The notes under the pieces were generated by a model. The model searched no databases and was not told the origin of the DNA. It saw only the letters and a list, made by a program, of their open reading frames with translations. The position numbers and the translations under genes are program-made. Of a stretch of 64,000 bases of DNA, positions 19,554 to 38,798 are shown one piece after another; positions within the stretch are counted from its first letter, which is position 1; each line of letters opens with the position of its first letter. Source of the DNA: Reinekea sp. (lineage in GTDB: Bacteria; Pseudomonadota; Gammaproteobacteria; Pseudomonadales; Natronospirillaceae); contig JARRJP010000013.1 of NCBI GenBank assembly GCA_037389025.1, positions 54,305 through 118,304 on the forward strand, given 5' to 3'.

Positions 19554-19956
19554 TTACATTTTCAAGAGTTCTTGAATATAAGATCACTTGCATGTGCCTT
19601 GAGAAAACCTAGATTAAGAATAACGTTTTCAGATAGATTTAAATATTTCTTCAGTGACCAGCCCTTTCAAGGTGGTATATCAGCACGTTACCGGCAATAT
19701 AGGCAATTTTAGCTACATTTAAAGGGAATGGTCGAAATTGCAACAAAAAATTTCGGATTTAGCGAGTACTTTTCTTAAACTCGATTAGCTTTAGAGCCGC
19801 CAAAACACTGCTCTTTAAGGATTTCTCTAACTTTAGAGCTGGTTATTTTTTCACCTTGAAAGGGCTGCTAAAGTCATCGAATGTCTGCCCTTTTTATTTA
19901 TCAATCAGTGAAATAAAATCACCTTTTGGTGCATCAGGTAAAGGCCGAGTATATCG

Positions 19957-20178
19957 CTAAAAGTAACCAAATTGCTCTTCGATTTCAAAGGCCGTTTTCG
20001 CCTCCTCAAGTCTATCTCTTCCCGTTGAATCGGGATCATAAGCAAAATAGTTAATCCTCTCTTCTGGATCGGTATGCCTGAGTTCCTTAATCCCCTTGAT
20101 CTTAAGGACTTCTTCCGCAAACTCATCAGCAATTTCCCCAAGCTCACAAGGCGATCCTGTTGAGCTAGCCGTCATCAT
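19957..20178 (-). CDS. Hypothetical acidic 73-aa protein (last ORF of the island operon)
   Basis: GTGAGGT Shine-Dalgarno about 5 nt upstream of the ATGATG start. Starts 7 nt after the preceding stop. No family recognised. Confidence 0.5.
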   Translation of the reverse strand: MMTASSTGSPCELGEIADEFAEEVLKIKGIKELRHTDPEERINYFAYDPDSTGRDRLEEAKTAFEIEEQFGYF

Positions 20179-20185
20179 TGGGACC

Positions 20186-20335
20186 TCACTTTACCACGAC
20201 GTTGTTCGCACCAATATACTTGTATTCATCTACTGAAATAATACTGGCGGTCTCTTCTGCATTTAACTGGCCACATAGGAGAAGAACACTCGTCGAAAAT
20301 AACGCTGAAATATTTTTAACCATTCGTTTCTCCAT
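20186..20335 (-). CDS. Hypothetical 49-aa secreted peptide (signal-peptide-like N-terminus)
   Basis: ATG 20335 is 1 nt after the PdxJ-like stop. MEKRMVKNISALFSTSVLLLCGQLNA|EETASIISVDEYKYIGANNVVVK has an n-h-c signal layout with an A-x-A-like site. Confidence 0.4.
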   Translation of the reverse strand: MEKRMVKNISALFSTSVLLLCGQLNAEETASIISVDEYKYIGANNVVVK

Positions 20336-20336
20336 A

Positions 20337-21068
20337 TTAATCACTGCAAATTTCCAAGTACCTTGAAACCACTTGGTCAATGCCATATTCAATACACTCC
20401 ATGGTAAATGCATGACCTATAGAAACTTCAGATATGTCACCTAAATCCAGGAGCGCTCTCAGATTTTCTAGATTTAGATCGTGTCCAGCATTCACGCGAA
20501 CACCGTGCTTATTTGCCAACTGAACACATTGAAGATAACGCTCTTTTGCTTCTACAAAATTCGATTGATTGAACTTTGTGGCCCATTCCTCCGTATATAA
20601 TTCCACTGCACCTATATTGTTCTCAATTATGCTTCCCATTTGAGTGATATTTGCATCGAGGAACACTGCACAGCGAATATCTGAACTAGCAAACGCTTTA
20701 TTCAACATGGAGAGATACTCTCCTTCATTCTGTACATCATATCCATGGTCGGAGGTAAGCTGGTTATCATCATCGGGTACTAATGTACATTGGTGCGGCT
20801 TAACGTCCTTAACTAGTTCAATAAACCTTTCATTTGGATTACCTTCAATATTGAACTCTATTTCCGAGTGTTTTCTCAAAAGGTCTTTTATTTCATACAC
20901 ATCTTCATATCTAATGTGACGTTGATCGGGTCTGGGGTGAACCGTAAACCCCTTAACCCCCAAGCCAATCAACCTTTCTACAAAATAGCCTAAATTAGGG
21001 TAATCGTTACCCCGTGAGTTTCTCAGCAATGCAAGCTTATTCAGATTTACGCTAAATAGAGTGCTCAT
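20337..21068 (-). CDS. pdxJ: PdxJ-family (pyridoxine 5'-phosphate synthase-like) TIM-barrel enzyme, divergent paralogue
   Basis: VNLNKLALLRNSRG, FTVHPRPDQRHI, NIEGN, TLVPD, VNAGHDL and VSIGHAF align along the full length with E. coli PdxJ motifs recalled from memory. Confidence 0.8.
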   Translation of the reverse strand: MSTLFSVNLNKLALLRNSRGNDYPNLGYFVERLIGLGVKGFTVHPRPDQRHIRYEDVYEIKDLLRKHSEIEFNIEGNPNERFIELVKDVKPHQCTLVPDDDNQLTSDHGYDVQNEGEYLSMLNKAFASSDIRCAVFLDANITQMGSIIENNIGAVELYTEEWATKFNQSNFVEAKERYLQCVQLANKHGVRVNAGHDLNLENLRALLDLGDISEVSIGHAFTMECIEYGIDQVVSRYLEICSD

Positions 21069-21076
21069 AGAAATAC

Positions 21077-21865
21077 CTAAATTACGCAGGAAAGTGTTTT
21101 GTTAAATTCAATATTATAAAAATAGAGACCTCCATGCCCGAAAAGCATTACATAATACGAAGGTTCAAAATTGCATATTTTAAAGCGTTTATCTCCTGAC
21201 AAATCGGGATAAAGCTGGTGATTTGTTCCCTTTATAGTTGTATAGGGAACCCCTTGATATTCACCGTGAATATTCTGATGACAGTGACCAAAAAACACAT
21301 GTTTTACAATGTCACTAAAACAAGAAAGTAATTTATAAAATTTGTCGCTATTTTCCAGGCCAATATCATCATAACACTTAACATTGATTTGAAAAGGGTT
21401 GTGGTGCATAAAAAGATATACATCACGTTTGTCTTTGCTAGATTGTTCAAGAACTCTTTTCAACCAATTCATTCGAGAAGAACACAAACTTCCTGACGAC
21501 CGACCGGGGACTGTTGTATCAAGAAATATAAATATCTTGTTGCCATACGCTTTACTGAACTGTACATACCTTCCCTGATAAGTATCTAATTCAATATGAT
21601 TGCTAGCCTGGAGAAAGCTGTCGTGATTTCCTAACAAGGTGTGATATGGAATGGTCAATTCTTGGTTACATTCCGAAAAATATCTATAAGAGATCTCAGA
21701 ACCGTCATTAGATATATCACCCATGCAAAATATCGCCTGCGCATCTGTATGGTGTTCAGCTATATGAGAAACCGCCTTCCTGTAATTAATATCTGAATTA
21801 CAGGAATAGGTTTCAACACTCCTCCCAGTCAAATGGAGGTCCGACAGTAAAATATATTTCTCCAT
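21077..21865 (-). CDS. Calcineurin-like metallophosphoesterase (CpdA/GpdQ-like)
   Basis: Motifs SDLHL, GDISNDG, GNHD, MHH and GHCH in canonical order. Confidence 0.8.
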   Translation of the reverse strand: MEKYILLSDLHLTGRSVETYSCNSDINYRKAVSHIAEHHTDAQAIFCMGDISNDGSEISYRYFSECNQELTIPYHTLLGNHDSFLQASNHIELDTYQGRYVQFSKAYGNKIFIFLDTTVPGRSSGSLCSSRMNWLKRVLEQSSKDKRDVYLFMHHNPFQINVKCYDDIGLENSDKFYKLLSCFSDIVKHVFFGHCHQNIHGEYQGVPYTTIKGTNHQLYPDLSGDKRFKICNFEPSYYVMLFGHGGLYFYNIEFNKTLSCVI

Positions 21866-21879
21866 TTATAGGTTACTGC

Positions 21880-22539
21880 CTACAATCGATTGTCGACATC
21901 ACCAGAATAAACAGTACCTCTATACTGTATTACTATGGAATGGGTATCTACATCATGACGCCAGCCTTTAATATCGTATTTATTTTTTAGGTCTGAAACA
22001 GTGTCATCTATATTAAAAATGGTTTTGCCTGCAATTCTATTTCTGAATTCAGTTTCGCTTTCAATGGGTTTATCGGATATTTCAGATTCATACATTTCGT
22101 ACAGGATTCTAAAGAAACGTACTGTAAGTTTCTCTTTGAATGATTCGGATATACTCTTCTGCCATATTCCAGGCTGGGAATAGAAGACCTGCATTACTGA
22201 GCCGAGATATTTTGAAACGGTTAATGCTTTATAAACTTCAGACTTGTTATCCAACGCGTCACTTGGAGATAATACATAACCTAAATTAAGATATTCCGAT
22301 AAGCAAAGAACTGTCTTTTCAATAACTTCGTGCTGAGCCATTGAAGGAAACCTTGGCCCCAAATGATTTGCTATTTCAAATATGCTCCACTTTCCGTTAA
22401 TCAACTTCCAAGCAGAGTTTGAAAATTCATCTAATCGGCACAAATCCGTCAGCTTAATCAGAAAGATATCTCCGTTAACCACCCTCCTTCTAACCGCATG
22501 ATGTTTCACTAATACATCACCCAAGGCAACCATAGTCAT
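21880..22539 (-). CDS. PqqD-like (RiPP recognition element-type) N-terminal domain protein with an unknown C-terminal domain
   Basis: Residues ~20-90, RLDEFSNSAWKLINGKWSIFEIANHLGPRFPSMAQHEVIEKTVLCLSEYLNLGYV, parallel PqqD [33 protein letters not shown]...VVEFLQ. ATGA overlap with the upstream gene. Confidence 0.55.
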   Translation of the reverse strand: MTMVALGDVLVKHHAVRRRVVNGDIFLIKLTDLCRLDEFSNSAWKLINGKWSIFEIANHLGPRFPSMAQHEVIEKTVLCLSEYLNLGYVLSPSDALDNKSEVYKALTVSKYLGSVMQVFYSQPGIWQKSISESFKEKLTVRFFRILYEMYESEISDKPIESETEFRNRIAGKTIFNIDDTVSDLKNKYDIKGWRHDVDTHSIVIQYRGTVYSGDVDNRL

Positions 22540-23348
22540 ACCGCTTCTCTTCTCAAACAGTAAGCTTTTTCAACCATCTTTTCCGAAAGATGAAGTGCAG
22601 TATTCACATAGTCTCTTTTGTCATATTTGTTTATTGGTAGGTTATGCATGAAAGACCAGTAATCCAAATACACTTCCCTCGCGTCAATATCGCTTTCATA
22701 TATTGCTTCCAAAATTTTAAAACGATGCTTGTTTTTAGGGTTAGTCCACCCTTTGGAGTAAAGCAGCAAATCTATCGAAAATTCCAGGGTTTCCTGGGAT
22801 CGCCGAATCGCACCGGATATATTCCCGCTGTTCAGCATGCCTACAGTGTCATCGAAAGAATCATCTATATAAATACGCTTATTCTCAAAAAGATATCGAT
22901 TGATTTTTACGCGATCAAAACGATCAACAATATCTGCATAGGCATCAGTATTCCTAACAACACGGCAATTAAATATTCTATGTGCGAAATCAATTTCGTT
23001 TTCATCTAGCGCATCCAAAAAGCTATTTTCAGCGTTATCTACCTGTAAGCTATCTATTTTGGACGCGAGCCTATCTATGGACTCGTAGCTCCATATTTCC
23101 ACATCGACTCTTCTACTTTTAAAGTAATGGATTTGGATTTTAAACCTACAGCCATCAGTCACGAATTCTTTAATGGTATTGAGATCTTCGACCACCATAT
23201 ACACGTCAATATCAGAGCTATCATTTCCAATACCCTCCACCAACGAACCGGCTATCCATACTGGAGTACCTTCTGTAACTTGATTTCTAATAAGATCAAG
23301 TATTTCATCGTGGTGGACTCCTCCAATTGATTCATTCATATATTTCAC
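22536..23348 (-). CDS. Pol-beta superfamily nucleotidyltransferase with a helical C-terminal domain (paralogue of 30638-31678)
   Basis: GSLVEGIGNDSSDIDVYMVV (G-S...D-x-D) NTase motif. VDVEIWSYESIDRLASKIDSL is shared with the paralogue. Confidence 0.75.
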   Translation of the reverse strand: MKYMNESIGGVHHDEILDLIRNQVTEGTPVWIAGSLVEGIGNDSSDIDVYMVVEDLNTIKEFVTDGCRFKIQIHYFKSRRVDVEIWSYESIDRLASKIDSLQVDNAENSFLDALDENEIDFAHRIFNCRVVRNTDAYADIVDRFDRVKINRYLFENKRIYIDDSFDDTVGMLNSGNISGAIRRSQETLEFSIDLLLYSKGWTNPKNKHRFKILEAIYESDIDAREVYLDYWSFMHNLPINKYDKRDYVNTALHLSEKMVEKAYCLRREAV

Positions 23349-23351
23349 TCT

Positions 23352-23963
23352 CTACGCTATCAAGGGTTTTATCGCAGTTAGTACCTGATCTTTCGTTGAT
23401 GACAGATCGCCCGAATTATCGATAACCCGATACTTGATTTGAAATTTTCCGAACACATGGAGATAAGATTCACCAAACATCCTCATGAGTTCGATATCTT
23501 CATCGTCACCACAAGACTGCCTGTCTAGATACCGTTTTTCCAAGTTTGATATGCCAGCATCGATATATAAGGTCAGGTCAGGTTGAATAAATTTAGAAAG
23601 CAGGTCCTTTAAAGGTGTAACATCTTCAAAAATATCAATATAGGCGAGATAACAAGGCAGAAATCGGTCAAAGACAACATAATCGTAATTCTCCATGGCC
23701 TTAACATTCTGATCATAGCAACGAATAAAATCCAATAGTATCCCTAACCCTATGTTTTTCCCGAAGGCACTTTCTTTCCAGTCTCGCGAATCGCCGTACT
23801 TTCTTGGAAAGTATTTCTTTACTAAATTTAGGTTTCCATCTTCATATTTTGTACGTCTAAAGAAGAAGACGTTTTTCAGTATATTTGACTCTTCCAACAT
23901 GTTTACTATGGTGGATTTTCCACTTCCGTCTACACCACATATCGCAATCGATTTCATTCCCAA
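23352..23963 (-). CDS. dTMP-kinase-like P-loop kinase, paralogue 1
   Basis: Walker A ICGVDGSGKST. FPRKYGDSRDW and FDRF motifs are shared with 23967-24596 and 26474-27073. Confidence 0.7.
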   Translation of the reverse strand: MGMKSIAICGVDGSGKSTIVNMLEESNILKNVFFFRRTKYEDGNLNLVKKYFPRKYGDSRDWKESAFGKNIGLGILLDFIRCYDQNVKAMENYDYVVFDRFLPCYLAYIDIFEDVTPLKDLLSKFIQPDLTLYIDAGISNLEKRYLDRQSCGDDEDIELMRMFGESYLHVFGKFQIKYRVIDNSGDLSSTKDQVLTAIKPLIA

Positions 23964-23966
23964 AAC

Positions 23967-24596
23967 CTAAAGATAACTGGCAATTATTGATTTAACTTGA
24001 TTTAGCGTCTGCTCAAACGAACCATCATTACTCACGCTTTCCACGTCTAAATCAGAATTCTCGAAGAGATTGACATATGCCGCCAATAATTTCTTCTGGC
24101 ACTCTTTGGTTTCAAATTCATGAATGTCATCGGAACTGCTATCCATACGTTGCCGAATTAGCTCTTCTTTCAGAGTGATAAAAATCACCTTCTCTGGGGC
24201 CGGAACGGAATCTAAAATTTGTAGGGAAATATTGCTTGGCTGCTCATTAATTAGCGTAAAAGCCTTAAAACAAGGCGTATGCCTGTCTGTTACAACGAGC
24301 TTATATTGAGTCGAACTTCCTTCTAATACGGGTCTAATTACCTGATTGTAATAGTTTACATAATCTATCGCACAGCTAATTGCTATAGCCTGATTGAATT
24401 CCCCGCTATACCAATCTTCAATGCCATTTTTTCTAGGAAAGCATTTTTCCACTGTAGATTCTGCTATAGCAGGTCCTCGACCAACAAAATACACCTTCCC
24501 TTTCAACTCGGGTTCAGTTTCAAGTTTTTTAAAAATTGAGGTTTTTCCCACGCCGTCAATACCGCATAGGGAAATAACTGGAATTATTTTTTTCAT
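23967..24596 (-). CDS. dTMP-kinase-like P-loop kinase, paralogue 2
   Basis: Walker A LCGIDGVGKTS, then FPRKNGIEDW and TDRH. Confidence 0.7.
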   Translation of the reverse strand: MKKIIPVISLCGIDGVGKTSIFKKLETEPELKGKVYFVGRGPAIAESTVEKCFPRKNGIEDWYSGEFNQAIAISCAIDYVNYYNQVIRPVLEGSSTQYKLVVTDRHTPCFKAFTLINEQPSNISLQILDSVPAPEKVIFITLKEELIRQRMDSSSDDIHEFETKECQKKLLAAYVNLFENSDLDVESVSNDGSFEQTLNQVKSIIASYL

Positions 24597-25339
24597 TAAC
24601 TAGACACCATTAACTTAGCTGCTTCTTGATAATTAAATAGCCCATCAGACAATTCAACCACTGCGCCATTAAGAGCGTAGTTTGGTGACATTATCTGTTG
24701 GTAAATAGGCTCCACAACATTTTCCACTGCAAGCGGCCTTTCAATAACAAGTTGGCTACATAATTCATTTATGTATTCTTGTCCTTTATCAAATAGACCT
24801 ATACTGAAAACGCAAACACTTCTTCCAGAACCTGAAATCTCCATTGCTGCTGATCGAACAAAATTGCAGAGAGCGGTCGCGGTAGCGTTGTATAAACCGT
24901 TATATTTTACCGCCCCTTTTTCTCCCGCCAGACCAGTAATATTGATAAACTGCCAATTCTTCTTATGCTTTTTTAAATAACTAAAATAGCTGGCCATTGC
25001 TTCCACGGGAGCACGAAACCCCACCCGGGTGACGTTTTCTATTTCTTCTTGTGATATTTCATATACTGAAGAGTGGTTCCACATTCCACAACAGTAAAGC
25101 ACGGTGATATTTTCGTAATTATCTACTTCATCACGAATGACATCGCCTGCAACTACACTTTTGGCAGCTAAATCCATTGAGATTAATTTGATAACGAATT
25201 CTTCTTTGTTGAGACTATCTATATATTGGTTTTTATTTCTATAAACACCAATAATATTCACTTTTCCGCTCTCACCTAGTCTCTTAGAAATACTAAAACC
25301 GAGAAAAGAAGATATGCCATAGATAACAACCAGATTCAC
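24596..25339 (-). CDS. Short-chain dehydrogenase/reductase-like Rossmann protein
   Basis: VVIYGISSFLGFSISKRL glycine-rich dinucleotide motif. I prefer GTG 25339, just after the GT stop at 25341. The ORF-track ATG 25381 would overlap the GT gene by 41 nt. Confidence 0.55.
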   Translation of the reverse strand: MNLVVIYGISSFLGFSISKRLGESGKVNIIGVYRNKNQYIDSLNKEEFVIKLISMDLAAKSVVAGDVIRDEVDNYENITVLYCCGMWNHSSVYEISQEEIENVTRVGFRAPVEAMASYFSYLKKHKKNWQFINITGLAGEKGAVKYNGLYNATATALCNFVRSAAMEISGSGRSVCVFSIGLFDKGQEYINELCSQLVIERPLAVENVVEPIYQQIMSPNYALNGAVVELSDGLFNYQEAAKLMVSS

Positions 25340-25340
25340 T

Positions 25341-26471
25341 CTACATACACTCCAGTATTTTACGAATGGAATTCTCAGCATTTTCGAAACCGAGGTTCGG
25401 CTTTAGTTCTGTTTCTTCGGGATCAAGTTTACTTGCGCTTGTTATACACAAATCTAAGTCTTCGATAAACGAACAAAAATATGCATTTTCTGTTGACTCA
25501 GCAAATTCGGAGGCAATCAAGAATTGCTCGTCGTGTCCAGAGAGAGCCCATACGACCTTTCCTCCGGCTATATTTTTCACATCAGAAAGAAAACCAACAC
25601 CAGCACGAGATACAACCAATTTGGCCTCAGATAGGTATCTGTAGTACTCGAGAGATATTGAATCCACTACGAGCCGATCAATACCTGAAATCTTCTGTAA
25701 GGAGTTGTTTAACTCTTCCCCGAGGCATGAAAATACCTTTACGTGGCTACGTTTATCAAAACAGTTAAGTGCACTCTCTATAGCCTTGTGGGTATAGTCA
25801 TACGTTTCCGAAATCCATTGAGCGGCATCTACTTCCTCTGAACTATATGAAGCGGTATTTGAGGGGAACTCAACGCCGCCACCGTTCGCAATAACAACAA
25901 TATTGTCTTCGGTCTGAGCACCACAACTAGGTAGAGTATAAAAACCATGGCTCACAATCTTGCTAGAAATATTACTATTACTAATTAACGTTTTTTTCTC
26001 CGGCAGTTTATCCAAGGGTAGAAGGTAGTCACTCTCTCCTAGTAGACTCACCAGATAAGTAGAAGGCCCTTTATTTTTTGGCGTATCAATAAGTATTTCA
26101 GGGTTGAATAAGCCTACAGCTTTACAGCTGGTTCCCTTAGTAAGCGGCCCCATTAAATACTCACCACCAAAAAAACAAAGGTCTGCATTAATACTCTCTA
26201 TTAGCGGAAGTATATTTCGTACACCGTGATCGTAGGGGCATAAGCCCGGCCAATCCAAATACTCCTTACGCACATCCAGCTGATGCAGCTTGTATTCAAT
26301 ATCAATAGGGCCACGACCGGAAAGGAATTCATAACCGTTTGAATAGCTTGCGATATGCACTTCAAGCCCTTGATCATAAGCTGCTTTCGCCAGCGCTAAA
26401 CCCGGTATAACATGGCCCAACCCTGGCCGCCCCCTCAATACAAACAGAGCTACCTTCTTATTTAAATTCAT
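25341..26471 (-). CDS. GT-B fold glycosyltransferase (MurG/GT1/GT28-like)
   Basis: N-terminal GRPGLGHVIPGLALAKA and C-terminal VVSRAGVGFLSD...GHDEQFLIASEF resemble MurG/UGT-type donor-binding motifs. Confidence 0.65.
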   Translation of the reverse strand: MNLNKKVALFVLRGRPGLGHVIPGLALAKAAYDQGLEVHIASYSNGYEFLSGRGPIDIEYKLHQLDVRKEYLDWPGLCPYDHGVRNILPLIESINADLCFFGGEYLMGPLTKGTSCKAVGLFNPEILIDTPKNKGPSTYLVSLLGESDYLLPLDKLPEKKTLISNSNISSKIVSHGFYTLPSCGAQTEDNIVVIANGGGVEFPSNTASYSSEEVDAAQWISETYDYTHKAIESALNCFDKRSHVKVFSCLGEELNNSLQKISGIDRLVVDSISLEYYRYLSEAKLVVSRAGVGFLSDVKNIAGGKVVWALSGHDEQFLIASEFAESTENAYFCSFIEDLDLCITSASKLDPEETELKPNLGFENAENSIRKILECM

Positions 26472-26473: not shown

Positions 26474-27073
26474 TTATAGCGCTTCCAGAATATGTTCTAC
26501 AATTTCTGAGACGGAGTGCTCCAGCTCTTGAGTATTGTCTACCGTCACTACATCGGACATGTCAGAAAATAGACCATCATAGCTATCAGAAAGCTTTCGT
26601 ATTACATCTGGCGTTTCATCGTTACTCGGCCCTCCTCTAAGATGTTGCCTTTCTATAGCAACTTCGGGAGGTACTTTTATGTAAAAGGTTTTGTCCGGCG
26701 TCCTTACATTGTCAAACATCGAGAAATAGTCTTTATCTGTATTCACAGCTGACATGTACGACGTGTAACAATAACTATACCTATCACATATAACGATGGT
26801 ATTCTCCTTCATTAGAGGCTGAATGTATTTGTCATAGTGAGATATAAAATCCATACCCGTAGCAATAGAGACTAGCTGCGCAAATTTACCCCCACTCCAG
26901 TCCTGATCTCCACCCCAAAAATCGCAAATAAGGTTTACGTTGGTTTTAATATCCTTTTTCAGAGCAGTAGAATAATGCCCAATCTCCTGCAGGCGTTTGG
27001 ATACCAAATCTACCAAAGTAGATTTACCACAACCATCTACGCCACATAACACAAATAATTTTGATGAACTCAT
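26474..27073 (-). CDS. dTMP-kinase-like P-loop kinase, paralogue 3
   Basis: Walker A LCGVDGCGKST, then GGDQDW and CDRY. Confidence 0.7.
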   Translation of the reverse strand: MSSSKLFVLCGVDGCGKSTLVDLVSKRLQEIGHYSTALKKDIKTNVNLICDFWGGDQDWSGGKFAQLVSIATGMDFISHYDKYIQPLMKENTIVICDRYSYCYTSYMSAVNTDKDYFSMFDNVRTPDKTFYIKVPPEVAIERQHLRGGPSNDETPDVIRKLSDSYDGLFSDMSDVVTVDNTQELEHSVSEIVEHILEAL

Positions 27074-27085: not shown

Positions 27086-27757
27086 CTATACAACGCGATA
27101 ACTTTCTAAAAGAGTCAATAGGTTATCGATATCTGACCGAGTAACTTCTCTGGTATTTTTTAAACTCTCAGGAGTTCTTTCCTTTGAGCCATAGCGCCAC
27201 CAGGTTTCTTTTGTTCCAAAATCGTAATGGATCGCTCTCTGTTTCTGAGCCGGTGAGCGCAACATTAAGGATATACACTTATCCTCTCCTACCGCTCTCA
27301 AGTTGTGGATAACAGAGTGGTCAATAAAGTAAGGGATATTCTTTACTTCATTTTTTATGTACACAGGTTTAATTTGGTCTGCGTCATGTAGAATCGAGCC
27401 GTCATCCATTGGGCTATACAAAGTATGTTTGTAGCCACCGTGCAGTATCAGACTTGTAAAGTTCATTCTGTGGCTGTGTGGAATATCACTGGAATGTGGA
27501 TACATCACATGCATACGCAGTCTCACGCCAGTTTCTTTGTCACTGAAGAGAACATATTTTTCGATATTATAGTCTTTCTCGCAGCGTCCAAATTTTTCTT
27601 CATCTTCATAGAGATCAGTTACCAATGATTTAAGTAGCTCCTTATCTTCACTCAAGTTCATCAGCGCATTTTTTGTGACGACTTCCACCGACTCGGTATC
27701 TTTCCAATCTAACGCCAAGACCGGCCCCAAGATGTCGTTTAGCTTTTCAATATTCAT
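27086..27757 (-). CDS. Hypothetical protein, possible cupin-fold metalloenzyme
   Basis: MHVMYPHSSDIPHSHRMNFTSLILHGGY...VIHNL is a His-rich beta-strand pattern reminiscent of cupin or cysteine-dioxygenase-like proteins. The assignment is weak. Confidence 0.35.
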   Translation of the reverse strand: MNIEKLNDILGPVLALDWKDTESVEVVTKNALMNLSEDKELLKSLVTDLYEDEEKFGRCEKDYNIEKYVLFSDKETGVRLRMHVMYPHSSDIPHSHRMNFTSLILHGGYKHTLYSPMDDGSILHDADQIKPVYIKNEVKNIPYFIDHSVIHNLRAVGEDKCISLMLRSPAQKQRAIHYDFGTKETWWRYGSKERTPESLKNTREVTRSDIDNLLTLLESYRVV

Positions 27758-31693: not shown

Positions 31694-33058
31694 TTACACT
31701 ATGGTAGGTATTCTGGCTTCGGGTTTATACAATAGATTTTCAGCAGTCTTAATCGTCTTAACAATTCTCTCTGCCATAATGTTGAGTTCTTCTATGGTGC
31801 ATATGTAAGGTGGAGCAATTAATATGTGGTCACTCGTACCTTTCCCACTAAATCCCTCGCAGGCATAGAGTAGAATCTCGTTTTCCATTCCGATATTCTT
31901 AATAACATCAGGCATATTTATATTTTTCGAAAATGGTGTCTTATCAGACTTATTTGATACAAACTCAATAGATTGAAGAAATCCACGCCCCCTTATATCT
32001 CCCACTATCCCGCAAGAATTTAACTCCTCTTTCAATATCGAAGTTAGATACGCGCCGTTATTTTTTACCCTGCTTACCAAATCATTTTCTAGCACGTATT
32101 TCTGAGCAGCATAGCCAGCAGCACAAGACACGTTATGACCAACGTATGTACCAGCATGAATAAAACCAGATTTCATTTGTTCTATGCACACCGCAACTCG
32201 TTGACTACACAGCGTGGCCGCTAACGGCTGATACCCAGAGGCAATCGTTTTACCAACCGCAACAATGTCTGGCTGGATATTCTCAGCCTCGAATGCATAA
32301 TAATGTCCAGTTCTACCCAGGCCACACATAACCTCATCGAGAACCAATAGGATGTTGTATTTCTTGCATACTTTCGCGGTTTTCTCAAAGTAATCCTTTT
32401 CTGCCGTTACAGCTCCAGAAGTCGATCCGCCTACGGTTTCTATCAGGAAGCAGGAGATTTTCTCTGCACCAAGACGTTCTATCTCTTTTTCTAAGCTATT
32501 AATACAGTAGTCTATGTATTCGGTAGTGGTTTCAAAGGTGTCAACATTTCGATATGAGTTGCAAATTTTTATATTTTCGGAATGCCCGCTTTTTTTATCG
32601 CAAAAATATTTCTTTCTACTAAGCTGGCCACCTACTTCTAATGTTTTCAGAGAACCACCGTGATAGCTTAACTCTCGACACAGAACGATTTCTTTCTTGC
32701 CAAATCCGTTAAGTTTCCAATACTGGGCGGCCATTTTAATGGCCACTTCGATTGCCTCAGTACCTGATGGAGAAAAAACTACTCGAGAAAGCCTTCCCTT
32801 GGACTGTGTTACCAACAAGTCTGCTAGCTTTTCAGAAGCTTCCGAAGTAAAAGTTCCGGTGTGCGAAAATGGAACTTCTTTCAGCTGATTTATTGTCGCT
32901 TCGATAACAGCTTCATTGCTATAACCTAGAGATGCCACAGCTCCTGAGCAGCTATCCAAAAACCGACGGCCAGAACGATCGTTAACATATATACCACTAC
33001 TAGCAGCACAGAGGATTTTTTCAAAAGAACCCCTTTTAAGAATACTCGAGCCCATCAC
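31694..33058 (-). CDS. Class III PLP-dependent aminotransferase
   Basis: LVLDEVMCGLGRTGHYYAFE, DIVAVGKTIASG (PLP lysine) and SYHGGS. 454 aa. Confidence 0.85.
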   Translation of the reverse strand: MMGSSILKRGSFEKILCAASSGIYVNDRSGRRFLDSCSGAVASLGYSNEAVIEATINQLKEVPFSHTGTFTSEASEKLADLLVTQSKGRLSRVVFSPSGTEAIEVAIKMAAQYWKLNGFGKKEIVLCRELSYHGGSLKTLEVGGQLSRKKYFCDKKSGHSENIKICNSYRNVDTFETTTEYIDYCINSLEKEIERLGAEKISCFLIETVGGSTSGAVTAEKDYFEKTAKVCKKYNILLVLDEVMCGLGRTGHYYAFEAENIQPDIVAVGKTIASGYQPLAATLCSQRVAVCIEQMKSGFIHAGTYVGHNVSCAAGYAAQKYVLENDLVSRVKNNGAYLTSILKEELNSCGIVGDIRGRGFLQSIEFVSNKSDKTPFSKNINMPDVIKNIGMENEILLYACEGFSGKGTSDHILIAPPYICTIEELNIMAERIVKTIKTAENLLYKPEARIPTIV

Positions 33059-33069: not shown

Positions 33070-33870
33070 CTAGAACCTTTCATAGTGGCGTTTTTCACAC
33101 ATTTTTTTGAATGTGTTTCTGACCAAATCACTTGCTTTGTTCACTTCGTAGTACCATTCAGGATGCCACTGCACAGCAATAACATCTCCCAGCTCAGGGT
33201 TAAGAGAAAAGGCTTCTACCACACCATCTTTACTAATGGCTTCAACTCTCAAACCAGAACCTAACTTATTGACTGCCTGTCTATGTAGGGAATTCACATC
33301 CAGTACTCTTTCAGTTTTATTCTTCTTGCTGTATTCCTGCGCAAGAATTCCGCCCTCTTGCAGGACTACTTTATGGGAATCTATGTATTTTTCTTCAAAA
33401 ACACCTGTGATGTGTACTCTGTGAGTTTCTATCTGCTCGTCCGTTGGAAGCTTTTGATACAAGGTCCCACCTAAAGCGACATTTATCTCCTGCATCCCAC
33501 GACATATTCCCATTAATGGAATTTTTTCCTCAATACACGCCAAGACCAAAGGCAAAGTGGTACTGTCTCTATCAAGGTCAATTCGGCTGAAATCAATATT
33601 TCCTTTCTCATCAAGAACTATATTTTCCTCGCCGTACTTTTTGGGCTCCACATTGGAGGGACTCCCCGTGAGAAGTACGCCATCCAACCTTTTGACAACT
33701 TCTCTTAATGTGCTGGCACGGGTTTGAGTATCTTTATACCTCCTCCCCATACAAGGAATCATAAGAGGGCTATACCCCAGACCTTTAACAATATAGTCCA
33801 GGTACTTATCAAATACTGAATGGTGGGGCGCATCCAATATTTCCACACAGCTAGATACTCCAATAATCAT
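33070..33870 (-). CDS. Peptidase C26 / gamma-glutamyl-GABA hydrolase (PuuD)-like class I glutamine amidotransferase
   Basis: Nucleophile elbow GICRGMQEINVALGGTL and the His region VQWHPEW. Confidence 0.8.
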   Translation of the reverse strand: MIIGVSSCVEILDAPHHSVFDKYLDYIVKGLGYSPLMIPCMGRRYKDTQTRASTLREVVKRLDGVLLTGSPSNVEPKKYGEENIVLDEKGNIDFSRIDLDRDSTTLPLVLACIEEKIPLMGICRGMQEINVALGGTLYQKLPTDEQIETHRVHITGVFEEKYIDSHKVVLQEGGILAQEYSKKNKTERVLDVNSLHRQAVNKLGSGLRVEAISKDGVVEAFSLNPELGDVIAVQWHPEWYYEVNKASDLVRNTFKKMCEKRHYERF

Positions 33871-34277: not shown

Positions 34278-35424
34278 CTATTGATTAGACAAGATTTGAA
34301 TAAGATTTCTGTATATTTCATTTTGAGCATTCAAGCTAAGATCAAATGCAGGACAAATGTGCGCATACTTTCTAACGCTATGCTTATCCCCACTTTTCTT
34401 CATTACAGATGTCCCTATATATGCCCACATATCGAAGCCCGTTAAATCAGACGCGAACTTAGCGGCCTGCTCTGAATTCATATCCAGGCGAATAGAGGTT
34501 GGGGTTACACTTATGCCAATTTTCAATAACTGCGGAAAATTCTGTCAGACCATGCGTGAATGTAAGTGGAGCTATCCCGGAAGACTGAACGGCCTCTGTA
34601 ATATCAGAAGATAAAAGAGTGCAGCTCAAGGGATGTAAACCGGAAGTCAACCCTTTGGATACAATTGAAACATCTGGTAATACCTGTTCTTCTTTTACAC
34701 CGCATGAAAGAAAAACACCATGCCTAAATGCACCTGATGCGACATCGTCTAGCACAACCAAAATTTCATGATTCCGGCAATAGGAAATAATGTCTCTTAA
34801 AACTTTACCGTCACTGTTAAACTTCCACCCTGTTGTTGGCTTTCCTTCAAGCAATAGCAATGCGGGGTAATGAATCCGCTTGCTTTCAACTAACTCTTTT
34901 AAATGATCAATAAATGTTGATCTATCTAAATTTTCATTACAGGCTAGGTATTCTTCCGATGGACATTCGTCAATGACAATCACACGCTTGTCTTTGGAAC
35001 CACCGGAAGCACGAGCCGATAGATTTCGACATAAATCTGTATTTCCATGATAACTACCTTTTCTTACAATAAAGCTTTGAATCTCTTTACCATATTTATA
35101 ATTACAGTAAACATTAGCTGCCCAGATACCAGATTCAATGGCATCAGAACCACTACTTGACCACAACATGTCTTTATATTTTTTGTTACATTGAGCAATG
35201 ACACTTTTCTGCAATTTTCTCTTCTGTTCTGACTCAAAACCAGCAGACGGAGCAATATGATTTAATACAGATTTTGAAAGCTCACAAAGCGTCTCAACAT
35301 TTGAAAAGTTTTGGGTTAATGACCCACCACTAATATCAACAAGAAACTTGCCATTCCCAAGGGAAAAATTAGAACCAATTTTTTCTTTGATATTGAGGAT
35401 ACTTTTATTCAAGTGACGTATCAT
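34278..35424 (-). pseudogene. Class III aminotransferase split by a frameshift near 34515-34530 (ORFs 34459-35424 and 34278-34526)
   Basis: The upstream ORF has LVVLDDVASGAFRHG and SIVSKGLTSG (PLP lysine). The downstream frame continues with the expected C-terminal ...HICPAFDLSLNAQNEIYRNLIQIL. The frames overlap around TTGAAAATTGG. Confidence 0.6.
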
Positions 35425-36056
35425 CAGGTACCAACCTGCAATTCTTCATCTTCTAAAAGAACCGCTTTCGTAATATCCACAATAGACACGATTGGTATAT
35501 CTAGATTTCTAGAGATACTTTCTAGTTCGGATTTTCGAGCAATAGAACCAGCAGAATTTAATATTTCACAAATCACACCAGCCCCCCCGATCCCAGCTAA
35601 ATCAAGTAAGTCTACGATCGCTTCAGTATGCCCATCTCTTACTTTCAGGCCACCTGGCTTAGCTAATAGAGTTGGAATATGACCAGGAGTACAGAATAAT
35701 TCAGGGGTGCTATCGATATCACTTAACGCCTGTATTGTCTCACTACGATCTTCTGCAGAAATACCTGAAGAACCATTGGCAAGGGAAACAGGACAACCAA
35801 AAGGAGTATCATGCACATCCTTATTATTGCTACGTAAACGTGTAATTTCAAACTTTTCTGCAAACTCACTTGGCAAAGAAACACACAAAAATCCCTTTGC
35901 AAAAGTCAACGCAAAATTCACCAATGCTGGAGTAGCATATTTTCCACTAAAAGCAAGGTCACCTTCACCCTCTCTATCATCTCGATCACGAATTATTATC
36001 GGTTTACCAGAAACCAAATAATCGATAGCCTTGTCTACTGATTTTGAATATTTCAT
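35424..36056 (-). CDS. ribB: RibB-family 3,4-dihydroxy-2-butanone-4-phosphate synthase-like enzyme
   Basis: DRDDREGEGDLAF, GISAEDR, TPGHIPTL, DGHTEA and GVICEI align with E. coli RibB catalytic motifs recalled from memory. Confidence 0.85.
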   Translation of the reverse strand: MKYSKSVDKAIDYLVSGKPIIIRDRDDREGEGDLAFSGKYATPALVNFALTFAKGFLCVSLPSEFAEKFEITRLRSNNKDVHDTPFGCPVSLANGSSGISAEDRSETIQALSDIDSTPELFCTPGHIPTLLAKPGGLKVRDGHTEAIVDLLDLAGIGGAGVICEILNSAGSIARKSELESISRNLDIPIVSIVDITKAVLLEDEELQVGT

Positions 36057-36086
36057 AATGTGTCCACACGCTAGATCATACTAGTT

Positions 36087-36317
36087 TTAGGTAACAATTA
36101 ATGCTGGAGAAAAAGTTGAATGCTGATCTTCGGGAATGCCAATTGAAGAGCCAGCCTCAGGCGCAATTGCTACTATTGCGATAGTATTCGGAACCTTATC
36201 TTTTTTTATTCTTAAGTTATTACAAATAATATTTTTTTGATTTTCGGTTAACTCAATTGTAGTTGTAGTTGCCATATTAATATCCGATTGCAGTTGTTTA
36301 TTTGTAAAAATAGCCAT
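36087..36317 (-). CDS. Small leader ORF of the island operon (62-94 aa depending on start); candidate precursor or scaffold peptide
   Basis: Open frame 36087-36371 with ATGs at 36335, 36317 and 36275. From 36275 it reads MATTTTIELTENQKNIICNNLRIKKDKVPNTIAIVAIAPEAGSSIGIPEDQHSTFSPALIVT. Ends 30 nt upstream of the ribB-like gene. No known family. Confidence 0.4.
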   Translation of the reverse strand: MAIFTNKQLQSDINMATTTTIELTENQKNIICNNLRIKKDKVPNTIAIVAIAPEAGSSIGIPEDQHSTFSPALIVT

Positions 36318-36359
36318 AACACTCGGCTGCGTCATCTTCCCGGTTGCCTGAGCTCTCTC

Positions 36360-36880
36360 TGCTGTCGGCAAAGGTTTTTTTCATGCGGCGATACAGTGTG
36401 AGCGTTTCCGCACTAATAACCACGCCTGGGTGCTTCTTCCAGTTATAATAGGTCGACTTTCATGACTTGACAAAGTGTCACAACTGGATAGTGCTCAGAC
36501 TCTCCTTTAACGAATTCAAACTTTACTTCATTTATTTCGCAAAGAAGGCACTGGTCTTTTTTAAAATATCTTTCTCCATGCACAATTCTTTATTTTCTTT
36601 ATGGAGGCGCTTGAGTTCTTCGTGTTCATCTTCGACTAAGGCAACACCTTCACGCTGAGCTTAAATTTTTCTTTTCATTTATAGAGTAAGAATCGTGCAA
36701 TGCTCAACGAATTCGCGGCTTGGGTAACGGAATAACCTTGCTATAATGCTAAAGCTTCAGCCTCTTCTTTAAATTCTTTCGTATATTGCTTGTGAGTTCG
36801 TTTCTGACTCATACTGACACCGTAACTGATTGGCGGTTATTGTCTCTCAATTAAGTGTCCGGTGCCATTAGACCACTACA
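36360..36880 (-). mobile_element. IS3-family element, 5' fragment (IRL plus degenerate orfA and start of orfB), truncated
   Basis: The minus strand from 36880 reads TGTAGTGGTCTAATGGCACC..., then MSQKRTHKQYTKEFKEEAEALAL*, several more stops, an A-rich slippery region and ...YNWKKHPGVVISAETLTLYRR. Confidence 0.7.
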
Positions 36881-36896
36881 GACTTAATTTAATAGA

Positions 36897-37319
36897 TCAT
36901 GAAATTTCTTTTTTTACATGAGCCCATTTTTTTGGCGTATAACCATACCAGCGTTTAAATGATTCTATAAATGCACTTGAGCTTCTAAAAAACAAAAATT
37001 TAGACACCTGATCAACAGTACAACCTTCAAAGGATAGCAAAAATAACGCATACGGCTTTCTAATCTCATCTTTAACCCCTAAATATGTCATTTTTCGATC
37101 TCTCAATCTTCTATATAAAGTTCTTTCACTAACACATAGAGATGAGCAAACCCCATGCAAATCAAAAGGATTTTTACTATTACTATTAATCTTTTTAATA
37201 ATAACTAGAAAAACGCTTCTCAAAAAATCATCTTTACAATACTTAATGTTGATATGATTGATAATTTTCCTAATTGACTTTTTTGAAACTTTTTCCATTT
37301 TCATTTCCATTGAAGGCAA
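36897..37319 (-). CDS. AraC/XylS-family HTH regulator (DNA-binding domain only, 140 aa)
   Basis: LCVSERTLYRRLRD...TVDQVSKFLFFRSSSAFIESFKRWYGYTPKKW is the double-HTH AraC C-terminal signature. Confidence 0.75.
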   Translation of the reverse strand: MPSMEMKMEKVSKKSIRKIINHINIKYCKDDFLRSVFLVIIKKINSNSKNPFDLHGVCSSLCVSERTLYRRLRDRKMTYLGVKDEIRKPYALFLLSFEGCTVDQVSKFLFFRSSSAFIESFKRWYGYTPKKWAHVKKEIS

Positions 37320-37574
37320 GGATTATAAAAATTCAATAGGCTCTACTATCTTAAAAAGATATAAAAATACGAATAAGCAAGAATTATCATTTTTCATGTT
37401 TATTTATAAAAATTCAACAATAAAAATATCGATTATCTGCCAATAGCACCTTAGTGATAAGCAAATCACACCCATTAAAAAAGAGATCTTAGAATCTTGG
37501 CAATTTCCACGATATTTTAACGTCATTAATTATCCGAATTGTTATGGTAAGTATCAATAAAATCTCAGTATGAG

Positions 37575-37834
37575 ATGAGCTGGATCGGTTGAAATCCGAG
37601 TTCAATCGATTATCTTTTGAAGGTAAAGTCTCTTGGGAAATTCGATTGCTCATGCAAAGCATGCTGGCTCTATTGGATATCATCTGTGCCATTTTTCTGG
37701 AAAGGAACACGACCAAAACTCCAGTCAATTCCAACAAGCCGTCCTCTCAAAACGGAAAATATGAAACGACTCTGCCACACAAAGGCAGTAAAGGAAAAGG
37801 GAAGTATGAAGCGACTCTGTCGGCCAACAATACC
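37575..37834 (+). mobile_element. Transposase N-terminal fragment (IS66/IS1182-like), truncated by IS3 insertion
   Basis: Coiled-coil DELDRLKSEFNRL... followed by KTPVNSNKPSSQNGK, which resembles the NS.NSSKPPS motif of these transposases. It ends abruptly at the IS3 end at 37835. Confidence 0.35.
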
Positions 37835-38330
37835 TGTGACCTGGTCAAGCATTACTGACCAGTCCAGTTAAGCAGCCTTTGCCATTATTTCATTATCTGT
37901 TTTAAACTGTATTGGACTTTTGTAGCCCAAGTAGGAATGAAGTCTTTTGCTGTTGTAATGCATGACAATATAATTCAGAACATCTGCTTGCGCTTCTGCT
38001 CGTGTTTGGTAATGACACCACTGAACTTGCTCTTGCTTTAACGTGCCAAAAACAATTTCGCTTACTGCGCTGTTCCAACAATTTCCTTTGTGGCTCATGC
38101 TACCAACAAAGTGATGATCCTCCAGTAGTTTTCGATACTCACTCGCTCGTGTACTGATAGCCACGATCCGAATAGATCAATCAGCCCAGCTTTTGACTGT
38201 CTTTGCCATCTTTAACGCATCACACACTAATGCTGCTGTCATTCGACTACTCGTGCTCCAACCGACCACTCGGCGTGAGTACAAATTTATGATCACCGTA
38301 AGATAGAGCCAGCCTTCTTGCGTCGTAACT
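37835..38330 (-). mobile_element. IS3-family element, 3' fragment (orfB integrase core, frameshifted and 5'-truncated)
   Basis: [39 protein letters not shown]..(frameshift)..YSDRG and ORF 37868-38164 with SMSHKGNCWNSAVSEIVFGTLKQE...YNSKRLHSYLGYKSPIQF (rve DDE domain). Confidence 0.8.
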
Positions 38331-38798
38331 ACTCACCCCAAAAGCCACAATTTCCCCCGCCAACACCATCTGTCTCGCAATCAACGGATTCACTCCCTTA
38401 CTTGCCATACTCTGCAAATAACTAGTGTCTGTCCGGAAGCGTCTAATCCATTGAATTTAAAAAATAAATTGACCAATTCCAAATAAAACGGCCTTGTGGT
38501 TTTGTAAAATTGCTTTCGCCAAAAAAGAATCCAACCAAACCCAAGGCTTGGCCATGCGGAAAAACCACACAGCTCAAACCAGTATATTCGATTCCTACTG
38601 CGACCCAGAAACCGGAACTGCGAACACCAAACGGAAACAAGTCACTGATCCAGCAAATATTTAAACACAGAATATTGGTGATTCAACAGCAAGATGATTT
38701 GGTTGCTGCTGTATGCGGCACAGCAAAACACCTGATTGATCGACTCAACCTGGCAACAACGCTAATATCCAACCAAACCCAGACGACAGTAATCTTTT

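Follow-up and report, generated by a model that had tools for sequence, protein, structure and literature searches.

What does a stretch of foreign DNA make when its enzymes map onto no characterised pathway? The question is raised by a 64,000-nt segment of a Reinekea sp. genome (GenBank assembly GCA_037389025.1, contig JARRJP010000013.1, positions 54,305 to 118,304 of the forward strand), called the window here and numbered from its first letter, in which an AT-rich island at 19554-38440 carries a run of 22 open reading frames (ORFs) opened by a short peptide gene, pep. The answer proposed here, by analogy with published systems and with a probability of about 0.5, is that the cluster's product joins a ribosomal peptide to a phosphorylated small molecule, or else is a small molecule built up on a peptide that serves as its scaffold. 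The proposal starts from what can be read directly, namely the composition shift, the gene content, the conservation across phyla, the invariance of pep, the recurring pair of a nucleotidyltransferase (NT270) and a protein (p219) with a domain like the recognition element (RRE) of peptides made by ribosomal synthesis and modified after translation (RiPPs), and the protein folds and families; from there we infer every substrate, the order of the steps and the role of pep as a substrate at all.

The foreign origin is visible in the base composition. Measured in 2-kb windows, GC content is 0.36-0.42 at about 19-38.5 kb, with 0.45-0.51 to the left and 0.48-0.50 to the right, and the island as a whole stands at 39.2% against 48.4% for the remaining window. 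Third-codon-position GC is 0.37 in the island genes and 0.47-0.57 in four flanking genes, and the tetranucleotide distance from the flank background is 0.38-0.43 within the island and 0.13-0.20 beyond. The AT-rich island described in an earlier sequence-only reading of this DNA is borne out by these profiles, which are not flat. Because of this shift in GC and tetranucleotides, an IS3 fragment at the edge and an integrase fragment in a strain variant, the island of this marine Reinekea is a horizontally acquired piece of DNA of about 19 kb. It is also accessory, since its glycosyltransferase (GT) family is present in only 3 of 185,579 GTDB species representative genomes by pattern scan, with no Reinekea among them.

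The operon itself has a compact layout. Every ORF from 36275 down to 19957 lies on the minus strand, intergenic gaps run from -77 to +30 nt, and overlaps are seen as an ATGA at 22536-22539, a single shared base at 24596 and at 35424, and 13 nt at 30638-30650. The single operon of the sequence-only reading holds at this level, and co-transcription would be expected from the spacing and the synteny; promoter-like and terminator-like consensus sites were no more frequent than in shuffled sequence. Pfam and NCBIfam back nearly all of the earlier domain calls (RibB, two class-III aminotransferases, a C26 hydrolase, a class I/II aminotransferase, KamA, a methyltransferase, three P-loop kinases, a GT, a short-chain dehydrogenase/reductase (SDR), two nucleotidyltransferases, a PqqD-like protein, a metallophosphoesterase and PdxJ), and the protein called a cupin can now be refined to a cysteine-dioxygenase-like one. 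Two modules can be told apart by which genes occur together. Module 1 is present everywhere, also in loci devoid of the peptide, and comprises RibB, AT3a, p129, K1, GT and SDR, in many cases together with PdxJ and a KamA-type radical S-adenosylmethionine (SAM) aminomutase dependent on pyridoxal 5'-phosphate (PLP):

35424..36056, minus strand: RibB-like 3,4-dihydroxy-2-butanone-4-phosphate (DHBP) synthase of a divergent, cluster-specific clade (Pfam DHBP_synthase 2.1e-55, full length)
34278..35424, minus strand: AT3a, class-III aminotransferase, always adjoining RibB (Aminotran_3 1.8e-21), broken in the window by a 113-nt deletion at 34523/34524 and intact in L020, L022 and L023
33876..34265, minus strand: p129, signature protein with a dimeric alpha+beta-barrel (DABB) fold
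26474..27073, minus strand: K1, dTMP-kinase-like P-loop kinase, always directly upstream of GT (Thymidylate_kin 5.5e-18; TIGR00041 73.7, under the 83.25 cut-off)
25341..26471, minus strand: GT, GT-B glycosyltransferase-like protein (GT28/GT1-like), family marker (profile against MurG 7D1I 1.4e-8, and against YjiC/OleD N-terminal regions)
24596..25381, minus strand: SDR oxidoreductase, always directly downstream of GT (adh_short 8e-14)
20337..21068, minus strand: PdxJ, pyridoxine 5'-phosphate (PNP) synthase (PdxJ 3.7e-67; NF003626 282.6, above the 222 cut-off)
28377..29642, minus strand: KamA-family radical SAM/PLP 2,3-aminomutase (TIGR00238 6.2e-39), 21 aa short near the N-terminus in the window copy (63-nt deletion at 29599/29600)

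Module 2 is found in the large clusters only, and comprises:

36087..36275, minus strand: pep, first gene of the operon, 62 aa (MATTTT...FSPALIVT-stop), proposed scaffold or precursor peptide
33070..33870, minus strand: Peptidase C26 / class-I glutamine amidotransferase-type hydrolase, PuuD-like (Peptidase_C26 1.8e-55)
31694..33058, minus strand: AT3b, second class-III aminotransferase (Aminotran_3 9.5e-71)
30638..31678, minus strand: NT346, divergent Pol-beta-type nucleotidyltransferase, paralogue of NT270 (27% identity by tblastn; weak MTPAP palm match)
27086..27757, minus strand: p223, cysteine-dioxygenase-like cupin (family profile against PDB 8VNI, mercaptosuccinate dioxygenase, E = 1.5e-4)
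23967..24596, minus strand: K2, dTMP-kinase-like P-loop kinase (Thymidylate_kin 1.7e-6; TIGR00041 6.7e-11)
23352..23963, minus strand: K3, dTMP-kinase-like P-loop kinase (Thymidylate_kin 3.3e-9; TIGR00041 8.4e-11)
22536..23348, minus strand: NT270, Pol-beta-type nucleotidyltransferase with a 4-nt overlap with the next gene (MTPAP palm 1.7e-4, NTP_transf_2 3.2e-3)
21880..22539, minus strand: p219 (219 aa), PqqD/RRE-like N-terminal domain (PF05402), then about 120 aa of C-terminal domain
21077..21865, minus strand: metallophosphoesterase, CpdA/SpdA-like phosphodiesterase (Metallophos 1.5e-12; SpdA model 5.3e-41, below cut-off)

Is this one pathway or an accident of neighbourhood? The gene set recurs, partly in synteny, in at least nine other loci, which include Saccharospirillum salsuginis KCTC 22169, an Arenibaculum metagenome-assembled genome (MAG), a Tepidisphaeraceae MAG and metagenome contigs, and the same 15-18 families come back across loci at 25-93% identity. 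The Saccharospirillum cluster, on BMXR01000006 at 156.6-172 kb, is fully collinear at 49-93% identity and lacks KamA and PdxJ, and the Arenibaculum MAG (Alphaproteobacteria) has pep, RibB, AT3a, p129, a nucleotidyltransferase, K1, GT, SDR and K2, with KamA and a phosphoesterase on the opposite strand. Metagenome contigs L015-L018, L026 and L028 additionally carry a DegT-type aminotransferase, and several of them a flavin monooxygenase or a Na+/H+-exchanger-family transporter. Reduced sets are found in the Tepidisphaeraceae MAG (L006: KamA-like, RibB, AT3a, GT, SDR, one kinase and p129) and in L007 (GT, p129, SDR and one kinase), both of which have module 1 genes without pep. Among the neighbours of related clusters are a LanB-type lanthipeptide dehydratase (L007, 12034-13286), a 924-aa AMP-binding/halogenase-like protein (L016, 20701-20966) and an ANT(2'')-like 'Aminoglyc_resit' protein (L015, 14452-14910).

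The conservation of the set across phyla indicates a single selected pathway and excludes a chance assembly of housekeeping paralogues; judged by its genes, it is a very rare, cross-phylum family. The 376-aa GT has 41 relatives, counted as 90% clusters, among 5.8 billion proteins, p129 has 24 such clusters in the same collection, all at least 58% identical, and an exhaustive HMM search with p129 gave 10 matches among 1.84 billion representatives. A pattern scan of metagenome contigs returned four short fragments only. The window sequence itself recurs, by exact-match look-ups, in the Reinekea sp. MAGs GCA_037379395.1 and GCA_037389065.1, in a third MAG and in marine metagenome assemblies.

A chance juxtaposition of housekeeping paralogues, or a degraded and non-functional island remnant, could be argued from the broken AT3a and the shortened KamA of the window copy, and from a PdxJ that clears its housekeeping equivalog cut-off. 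The synteny contradicts it: the same genes, with much of their order, are kept across classes and phyla, p129 is 58-98% identical in all loci, and the lesions are missing from independent assemblies of the same sequence, so that its probability is close to nil. Compared with L022, an independent assembly (SRR13768054) otherwise 100% identical to it, the window lacks 113 nt at 34523/34524, 63 nt at 29599/29600 and about 200 nt at 37482. L022 and a 93%-identical variant encode an intact AT3a of 419 aa and a KamA of 442 aa, two sibling NCBI MAGs show differing lesions at the same sites, and each deletion breakpoint adjoins an A8 or T9 run. For these reasons the deletions are probably artefacts of the MAG assembly and the pathway would best be taken as intact; what had been read as an aminotransferase frameshift is the 113-nt deletion.

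What, then, could the peptide do in such a pathway? The start of pep, previously placed at 36317, is by homology the conserved ATG 36275, and from there seven distinct homologues (window, L020, L005, L026, L028, L009 and L016) are each exactly 62 aa long, with zero indels. Their consensus reads MAT(T/S)T..I.LT..Q.....LR......P....(I/V)(V/M)A(I/L)(A/S)PEA....G(I/L)P........P(A/S)LI(I/V)T-stop, and all seven end with P(A/S)LI(I/V)T-stop. That the terminal Thr never varies speaks for a functional role of the C-terminus. The gene is the first of the operon in most loci, and its product has no Pfam or NCBIfam match.

The second clue is a gene pair. The p219 gene directly follows NT270 in all five loci where the two are found (window, L005, L015, L016 and L017), and two dTMP-kinase-like genes, K2 and K3, lie directly upstream of the pair or one gene away from it in four of the five, L015 having a single kinase. 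PqqD (PF05402) is the sole recurring Pfam family in the N-terminal 95 residues of p219, with matches in four of five homologues and a best E of 1.7e-4. The pattern VRRR..(D/G).I(F/Y)LI.L (strand-like), followed by W.L.(N/D)G.....EI...L and a helix ending in G, presumably fits RRE domains. A homologous-protein search with p219 returned p219 alone. As for its partner, a joint alignment of NT270 and NT346 has invariant columns E38, S45, D46, D48, D82 and E84, by which the catalytic G-S...D-x-D...E is kept; searches of PDB sequences with NT346 or p219, whether run with single sequences or with family profiles, were informative for no more than the catalytic motif of nucleotidyltransferases, and no close solved relative of NT270 or NT346 emerged. 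The three kinases retain, in their translations, the P-loop and the DR(Y/H/F) motif of dTMP kinase, with scores under the equivalog cut-off.

Two published systems show what such genes can achieve together. For fosfazinomycin (PMC13622209; bioRxiv 10.64898/2026.09.23.753898, a September 2026 preprint), two kinases turn a phosphonate into a triphosphate-like species, which a nucleotidyltransferase, encoded beside a discrete PqqD-type RRE, uses as a surrogate of a nucleoside triphosphate (NTP), and the phospho-moiety is ligated to the modified C-terminus of a ribosomal scaffold peptide. For daptides (Nat Commun 2023, PMC10036551), the invariant Thr at the C-terminus can undergo oxidative decarboxylation by an NAD(P) enzyme that works with an RRE-bearing partner; a class-III aminotransferase then transaminates it, and methylation follows.

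Since counterparts of both sets are encoded in the island, the block K2-K3-(p223)-NT270-p219 together with pep is proposed to carry out a peptide ligation. RibB would convert ribulose-5-phosphate into DHBP, the adjoining AT3a would aminate it, and p129, the SDR, the GT-B enzyme and often PdxJ, as supplier of another phosphomonoester, would elaborate it further. The aminomutase and a CobD-like decarboxylase may tailor this cargo. By analogy with fosfazinomycin, K2 and K3, which resemble nucleoside monophosphate (NMP) kinases, would then raise the phosphomonoester of the cargo to a di- or triphosphate-like species, and NT270, guided by p219 and perhaps helped by NT346, would hand the phospho-cargo over to a nucleophile located at the C-terminus of pep or close to it. 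This nucleophile might be the Thr hydroxyl, or an amine that the SDR and AT3b would produce along daptide-like lines, by oxidation, decarboxylation and transamination. Trimming or release of the product would fall, last, to the C26 hydrolase and the metallophosphoesterase. A RiPP-like or peptide-scaffolded product had been the first hypothesis of the sequence-only reading, and it has gained the most support, from the invariant Thr of pep, the pairing of the RRE-like protein with a nucleotidyltransferase and the published precedents; the part that it gave to the radical SAM enzyme does not stand, as this is an aminomutase and not an RRE-dependent peptide-modifying enzyme, and Saccharospirillum does without it.

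Several observations weigh against a peptide conjugate. The Pfam matches behind the RRE assignment of p219 are all below the gathering score, its AlphaFold2 (AF2) model, built from the single sequence, is of poor quality with a pLDDT of 55, and no RRE came up when PDB sequences were searched with a p219 profile. The peptide is conserved over its full length, like a small folded protein and unlike a RiPP precursor with a leader and a variable core, and no pep was found in the part of the L015 contig that was read, despite the NT270-p219 pair there. The window encodes no dedicated protease or exporter. From the fosfazinomycin side, FzmF is an ATP-grasp kinase while the kinases of the island are all dTMP-kinase-like, and an asparagine-synthetase-like enzyme with a fused RRE (FzmA) first prepares the nucleophile, of which the 22 ORFs of the island hold none. 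PdxJ clears the housekeeping equivalog cut-off, and could be a PLP supply for four or five PLP enzymes or a self-resistance copy. The cluster family is, moreover, known from genes alone.

Much of this would suit the strongest rival, a purely small-molecule pathway in which pep is no substrate, which we hold to be unlikely although it deserves to be kept in view. RibB and PdxJ units and a beta-amino acid would be glycosylated and transaminated into an aminoglycoside-like or phosphorylated amino-polyol, or into a vitamin B6/B2 antimetabolite; phosphorylation, nucleotidylation and dephosphorylation would serve as handles or self-protection, and the 62-aa ORF would be a regulator, a chaperone or an immunity protein. 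The occurrence of module 1 without pep in L006 and L007 speaks for it, as do the fold-like conservation of pep, the typical amino-sugar logic of GT, SDR and aminotransferases (with the DegT type in L015-L017 and L026), the transporters of relatives (Na+/H+ exchanger family and MMPL) and the ANT(2'')-like gene adjoining L015; extra PdxJ or RibB copies could, in addition, be resistant targets. It accounts poorly for the invariant Thr before the stop and the constant length of pep, which point to a functional terminus, and for the pairing of the RRE-like domain with a nucleotidyltransferase, given that RRE domains in published systems bind peptides (PMC10036551, PMC13622209). Nor does the island encode cyclitol- or NDP-sugar-forming enzymes: Pfam and NCBIfam revealed no cyclitol-forming enzyme (2-deoxy-scyllo-inosose synthase or inositol-phosphate synthase) and no APH-type kinase. 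A phosphorylated amino-polyol or pyridine moiety derived from RibB and PdxJ, another of the earlier hypotheses, is compatible with the peptide conjugate and would probably be its cargo.

Module 1 raises a further question, that of its life outside the peptide clusters. In L006 the core module is flanked (1340-6175 and 13302-17471) by genes for an MMPL protein, a PlsC-type acyltransferase, a class I/II aminotransferase, an acyl carrier protein (ACP), two acyl-CoA dehydrogenases and an acyl-AMP ligase, and this neighbourhood suggests a lipid-linked version of the product. As module 1 also occurs without the peptide, and in L006 beside ACP and acyl genes, it looks like a transferable 'head-group' cassette. 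Such a head group, activated and polar, might be placed on a lipid, glycan or protein of the producer itself by the MurG-like GT-B enzyme and the nucleotidyltransferases, which would explain the missing exporter. This modification of the cell envelope or another macromolecule, the third hypothesis of the sequence-only reading, survives as a minority option that we find improbable. It draws on the acyl genes of L006, on the nearest solved relatives of the GT, which are MurG enzymes acting on lipid-linked acceptors, and on the lack of any transporter or protease gene in the window. Set against these are the lack of Wzx/Wzy, lipid A, teichoic acid or capsule genes nearby, an extremely patchy distribution, foreign composition and insertion sequence (IS) and integrase scars that fit an accessory specialised-metabolite island better, and neighbours elsewhere that belong to secondary metabolism, such as the LanB-type dehydratase and the AMP-binding/halogenase-like protein. 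The earlier statement that there was no transporter or integrase needs a qualification: related clusters do carry transporters, and the 93% variant an integrase fragment.

The building blocks themselves bring another part of the answer. All seven cluster-linked RibBs score 125-163 bits with TIGR00506 (162.9 for the window copy), under the 177.45 cut-off, and all five cluster-linked PdxJs that were scored pass NF003626 (242-309 bits against 222). Because the former are all sub-threshold and the latter all fit their model, RibB and PdxJ seem to move together with the cluster. Of about 10 clusters, 6 have a PdxJ, at positions that differ from one to another, and in P0018 it forms a C-terminal fusion to the GT. 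In the window region, neither rib nor pdx genes are found next to them. The products of RibB and PdxJ are phosphomonoesters, the type of substrate used by enzymes of the NMP-kinase fold.

The signature protein p129 is probably a small enzyme. Its AF2 model (pLDDT 91.9) finds its best Foldseek matches in halves of HemQ/chlorite dismutase, olivetolic acid cyclase (OAC), hydroxynitrile lyase and SP1, and 34 columns of the family do not vary, among them four His and a number of Arg, Asp and Glu. A 240-aa relative, P0083, is a tandem DABB duplication with two profile matches, consistent with a dimeric barrel. For p223, the invariant residues are H83, P93, H94, H96, R97, H147 and H151, with the motif PH(S/N)HR. 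The C26 hydrolase scores 148 with the PuuD model, for a cut-off of 266, and 2.5e-13 with the gamma-glutamyl-CDP-amidate hydrolase model.

KamA scores below the Lys, Glu, Arg and EpmB equivalog cut-offs. Its alignment with PDB 2A5H stops at ...PYYIYQ (residue 291), where the cluster proteins have PYYMFVER or PYYVFQCR (six copies), placing an Arg at the position of Asp293 of lysine 2,3-aminomutase, a residue that we take to have a role in lysine binding. This Arg suggests a substrate other than lysine, possibly acidic or phosphorylated, which would fit the CobD-like PLP enzyme encoded next to it. That enzyme and the remaining genes of the operon are:

29664..30650, minus strand: AT12, class I/II PLP enzyme, CobD (threonine-phosphate decarboxylase)/GntC-like (Aminotran_1_2 1.5e-34; GntC 3.6e-28 and CobD 2e-27, both below cut-offs)
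27760..28362, minus strand: SAM-dependent methyltransferase (Methyltransf_25 2e-12), in the Reinekea and Saccharospirillum versions only
20186-20413, minus strand: small terminal ORF, 75/49 aa, signal-peptide-like N-terminus, no family match
19957-20178, minus strand: small terminal ORF, 73 aa, acidic, no family match

The two small ORFs are seen only in assemblies of the Reinekea population (L001-L004) and have no tblastn match in the Saccharospirillum locus, whose called genes stop at the metallophosphoesterase; searches of the other loci are uninformative for them. They probably lie outside the conserved pathway.

The type of radical SAM enzyme bears on a last rival, a redox cofactor derived from a peptide, as PQQ and mycofactocin are, for which the peptide would be consumed and its C-terminal residue turned into a cofactor, then glycosylated and phosphorylated. 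The joint presence of a short conserved peptide, a PqqD-like protein, oxidoreductases and a glycosyltransferase is reminiscent of mycofactocin (MftA/B/C/F), and the C-terminus is invariant in pep as it is in MftA and PqqA. The sole radical SAM enzyme, in contrast, is a KamA-type PLP aminomutase (TIGR00238) and not of the SPASM/twitch type, Saccharospirillum lacks it, no dependent dehydrogenases co-occur, and the extreme rarity and the island context would be atypical of a cofactor. We consider it highly improbable, and return to the peptide conjugate as the preferred explanation.

At the border of the island, two gene remnants stand between the operon and ltaE:

36897..37319, minus strand: AraC-family ORF with a helix-turn-helix (HTH) only, 140 aa, upstream of the operon (Pfam HTH_18 2.2e-11, HTH_AraC 2.8e-8)
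37868..38164, minus strand: C-terminal fragment of an IS3-family transposase (rve) at the right edge of the island, its ORF translation ending ...YNSKRLHSYLGYKSPIQF; L025 has rve_2/rve_3 at the same position

The AraC-type ORF is a candidate regulator, possibly truncated, and AraC-type genes flank the Saccharospirillum cluster and L007 as well. In the 93%-identical strain variant (L020, 539-988; L023, 481-930), an upstream phage-integrase fragment replaces these AraC and IS3 remnants. The right flank continues with ltaE and an EamA transporter gene. On the left lies a 4HBT thioesterase gene between the arms of a 98-nt inverted repeat, and farther out an H-NOX/histidine-kinase/response-regulator cluster. 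No tRNA was found at the island borders or in the window, and no Rfam element between 18.5 and 39.5 kb, thus no riboswitch, including an FMN element ahead of ribB. Direct repeats within the island are short two-copy matches of a type that chance often produces, with none marking its ends, and an empty site was not found in a relative, the sole other ltaE contig (L025) showing the same AraC and IS edge.

On the left side, several smaller features accompany the border. The arms of the 98-nt repeat (18900-18997 and 19456-19553, 90% complementary) bracket the thioesterase ORF (18976-19356, minus strand), and more copies of about 120-155 nt, 88-91% identical, are found on L001 (12063-12182 and 19862-20015), so that the element looks like a REP/MITE-like repeat family. 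Immediately beyond the operon, at 19659-19674 and 19852-19867, lie the two arms of a perfect 16-nt inverted repeat, 177 nt apart; the stretch 19657-19869 varies by indels among assemblies (L002 and L003) and may be a small mobile or hairpin element. From the annotation of the identical MAG contig L001, positions 13000-18912 hold H-NOX (HNOB), a hybrid histidine kinase and a response regulator, adjoining an acetyl-CoA-synthetase-like gene. A second and milder low-GC stretch (0.43-0.45) lies downstream of the island at 44000-48000.

How new is the cluster? The island and its left flank gave no megablast match in E. coli genomes, nor did the island in PLSDB plasmids, and full-text searches of PMC and bioRxiv, including RibB, PdxJ or DHBP synthase combined with BGC, RiPP, aminomutase or thymidylate kinase, returned no description of the gene set. 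Together with PADLOC and PHROG, where generic kinases were the only matches, these results agree with the earlier view that the mix of enzymes maps onto no characterised pathway; the word 'unprecedented' then used for it applies within the libraries searched. Within these libraries and this literature, the cluster family is uncharacterised, with no characterised member.

Going further, a new class of ribosomal-peptide conjugates can be imagined, in which Pol-beta nucleotidyltransferases, using a triphosphate surrogate generated by kinases, would link the C-terminal Thr of pep, by way of a phosphodiester or phosphoramidate bond, to a head group of amino-polyol or pyridoxine-like type derived from RibB and PdxJ products, with the cassette reused on lipids in other phyla. 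So specific a structure is speculative, a serious possibility that we would nevertheless not bet on. If true, it would carry the 'NTP-surrogate' ligation of fosfazinomycin beyond phosphonates, and would bring to light a new DABB enzyme family and a first use of DHBP synthase and PNP synthase in biosynthesis other than that of vitamins. Provided that the proposed logic is right, the ligation would take in ordinary phosphate esters as well as Gram-negative marine bacteria, and this would be the first case found of RibB and PdxJ recruited as suppliers of building blocks for a specialised product, for which a B2/B6 antimetabolite or a Trojan-horse conjugate could plausibly be imagined. The cluster already defines three unannotated protein families (the 62-aa peptide, the DABB protein p129 and the GT-B protein), and its complete syntenic copy in the cultured type strain Saccharospirillum salsuginis KCTC 22169 makes the proposal directly testable.

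Where does the cluster stand among known systems? Anti-phage defence and phage DNA hypermodification were dropped after PADLOC and PHROG gave generic kinase and P-loop matches only, and Flavophos, a phosphonate cluster with a DHBP synthase, was set aside as the island has no phosphoenolpyruvate (PEP) mutase. ThiD/ThiE of thiamin and MfnE/MfnF of methanofuran biosynthesis offer a purely conceptual likeness: a kinase turns the phosphomonoester of a heterocycle into a diphosphate leaving group, MfnE being of the NMP-kinase fold, and PdxJ and RibB also supply phosphomonoesters. ThiE and MfnF have no homologues here, and the coupling enzymes proposed are Pol-beta nucleotidyltransferases or a GT-B protein. 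Mycofactocin and PQQ share with the island a small peptide and a PqqD-family binding protein, and mycofactocin a decorating glycosyltransferase. The island differs from them by the lack of a SPASM-type radical SAM enzyme and of an MftE- or PqqF-type peptidase, and by the dominance of PLP enzymes, kinases and nucleotidyltransferases.

Daptides (MpaA-D and MpaM) come closer. Their precursor also has an invariant C-terminal Thr, as do all 7 of 7 pep sequences with their Thr-stop, and both bring together in one cluster an oxidoreductase of the NAD(P) type, a class-III aminotransferase, a SAM methyltransferase and an accessory protein with an RRE, or in the island an RRE-like domain. Membership was rejected on the scores of the daptide models, with 217.7 for AT3b and 72.6 for AT3a against the 450-bit cut-off of aminotransferase NF041821, and 27.4 against the 175-bit cut-off of methyltransferase NF041820, the methyltransferase being moreover absent from most related clusters. 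The sole oxidoreductase here is an SDR and not of the alcohol-dehydrogenase type, no membrane peptidase (MpaP) is encoded, and the RRE-like domain sits at the N-terminus of an unrelated 219-aa protein, whereas MpaB-type proteins are DUF-RRE accessory proteins. The peptide pep does not have a short, variable, hydrophobic core, and more than 12 further enzymes of the island have no daptide counterpart.

The likeness to fosfazinomycin (FzmZ peptide, FzmT RRE, FzmU nucleotidyltransferase and FzmF/FzmK kinases) extends over a short ribosomal peptide with a conserved C-terminal residue, a gene pair of a PqqD-type RRE and a Pol-beta-superfamily nucleotidyltransferase (by gene arrangement, the RRE being sub-threshold here), two kinases beside this pair, a predicted phosphate or phosphonate cargo in need of activation, and no dedicated protease. 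The island departs from it in having no PEP mutase, phosphonate or hydrazine genes, and in its 62-aa peptide ending with Thr, compared with 21-22 aa, a YxxP motif and a terminal Arg. The RRE is discrete there and the N-terminal domain of a 219-aa protein here, and the island adds a second nucleotidyltransferase and a third kinase. A member of neither system, the cluster would work partly like daptides and most like the late steps of fosfazinomycin biosynthesis.

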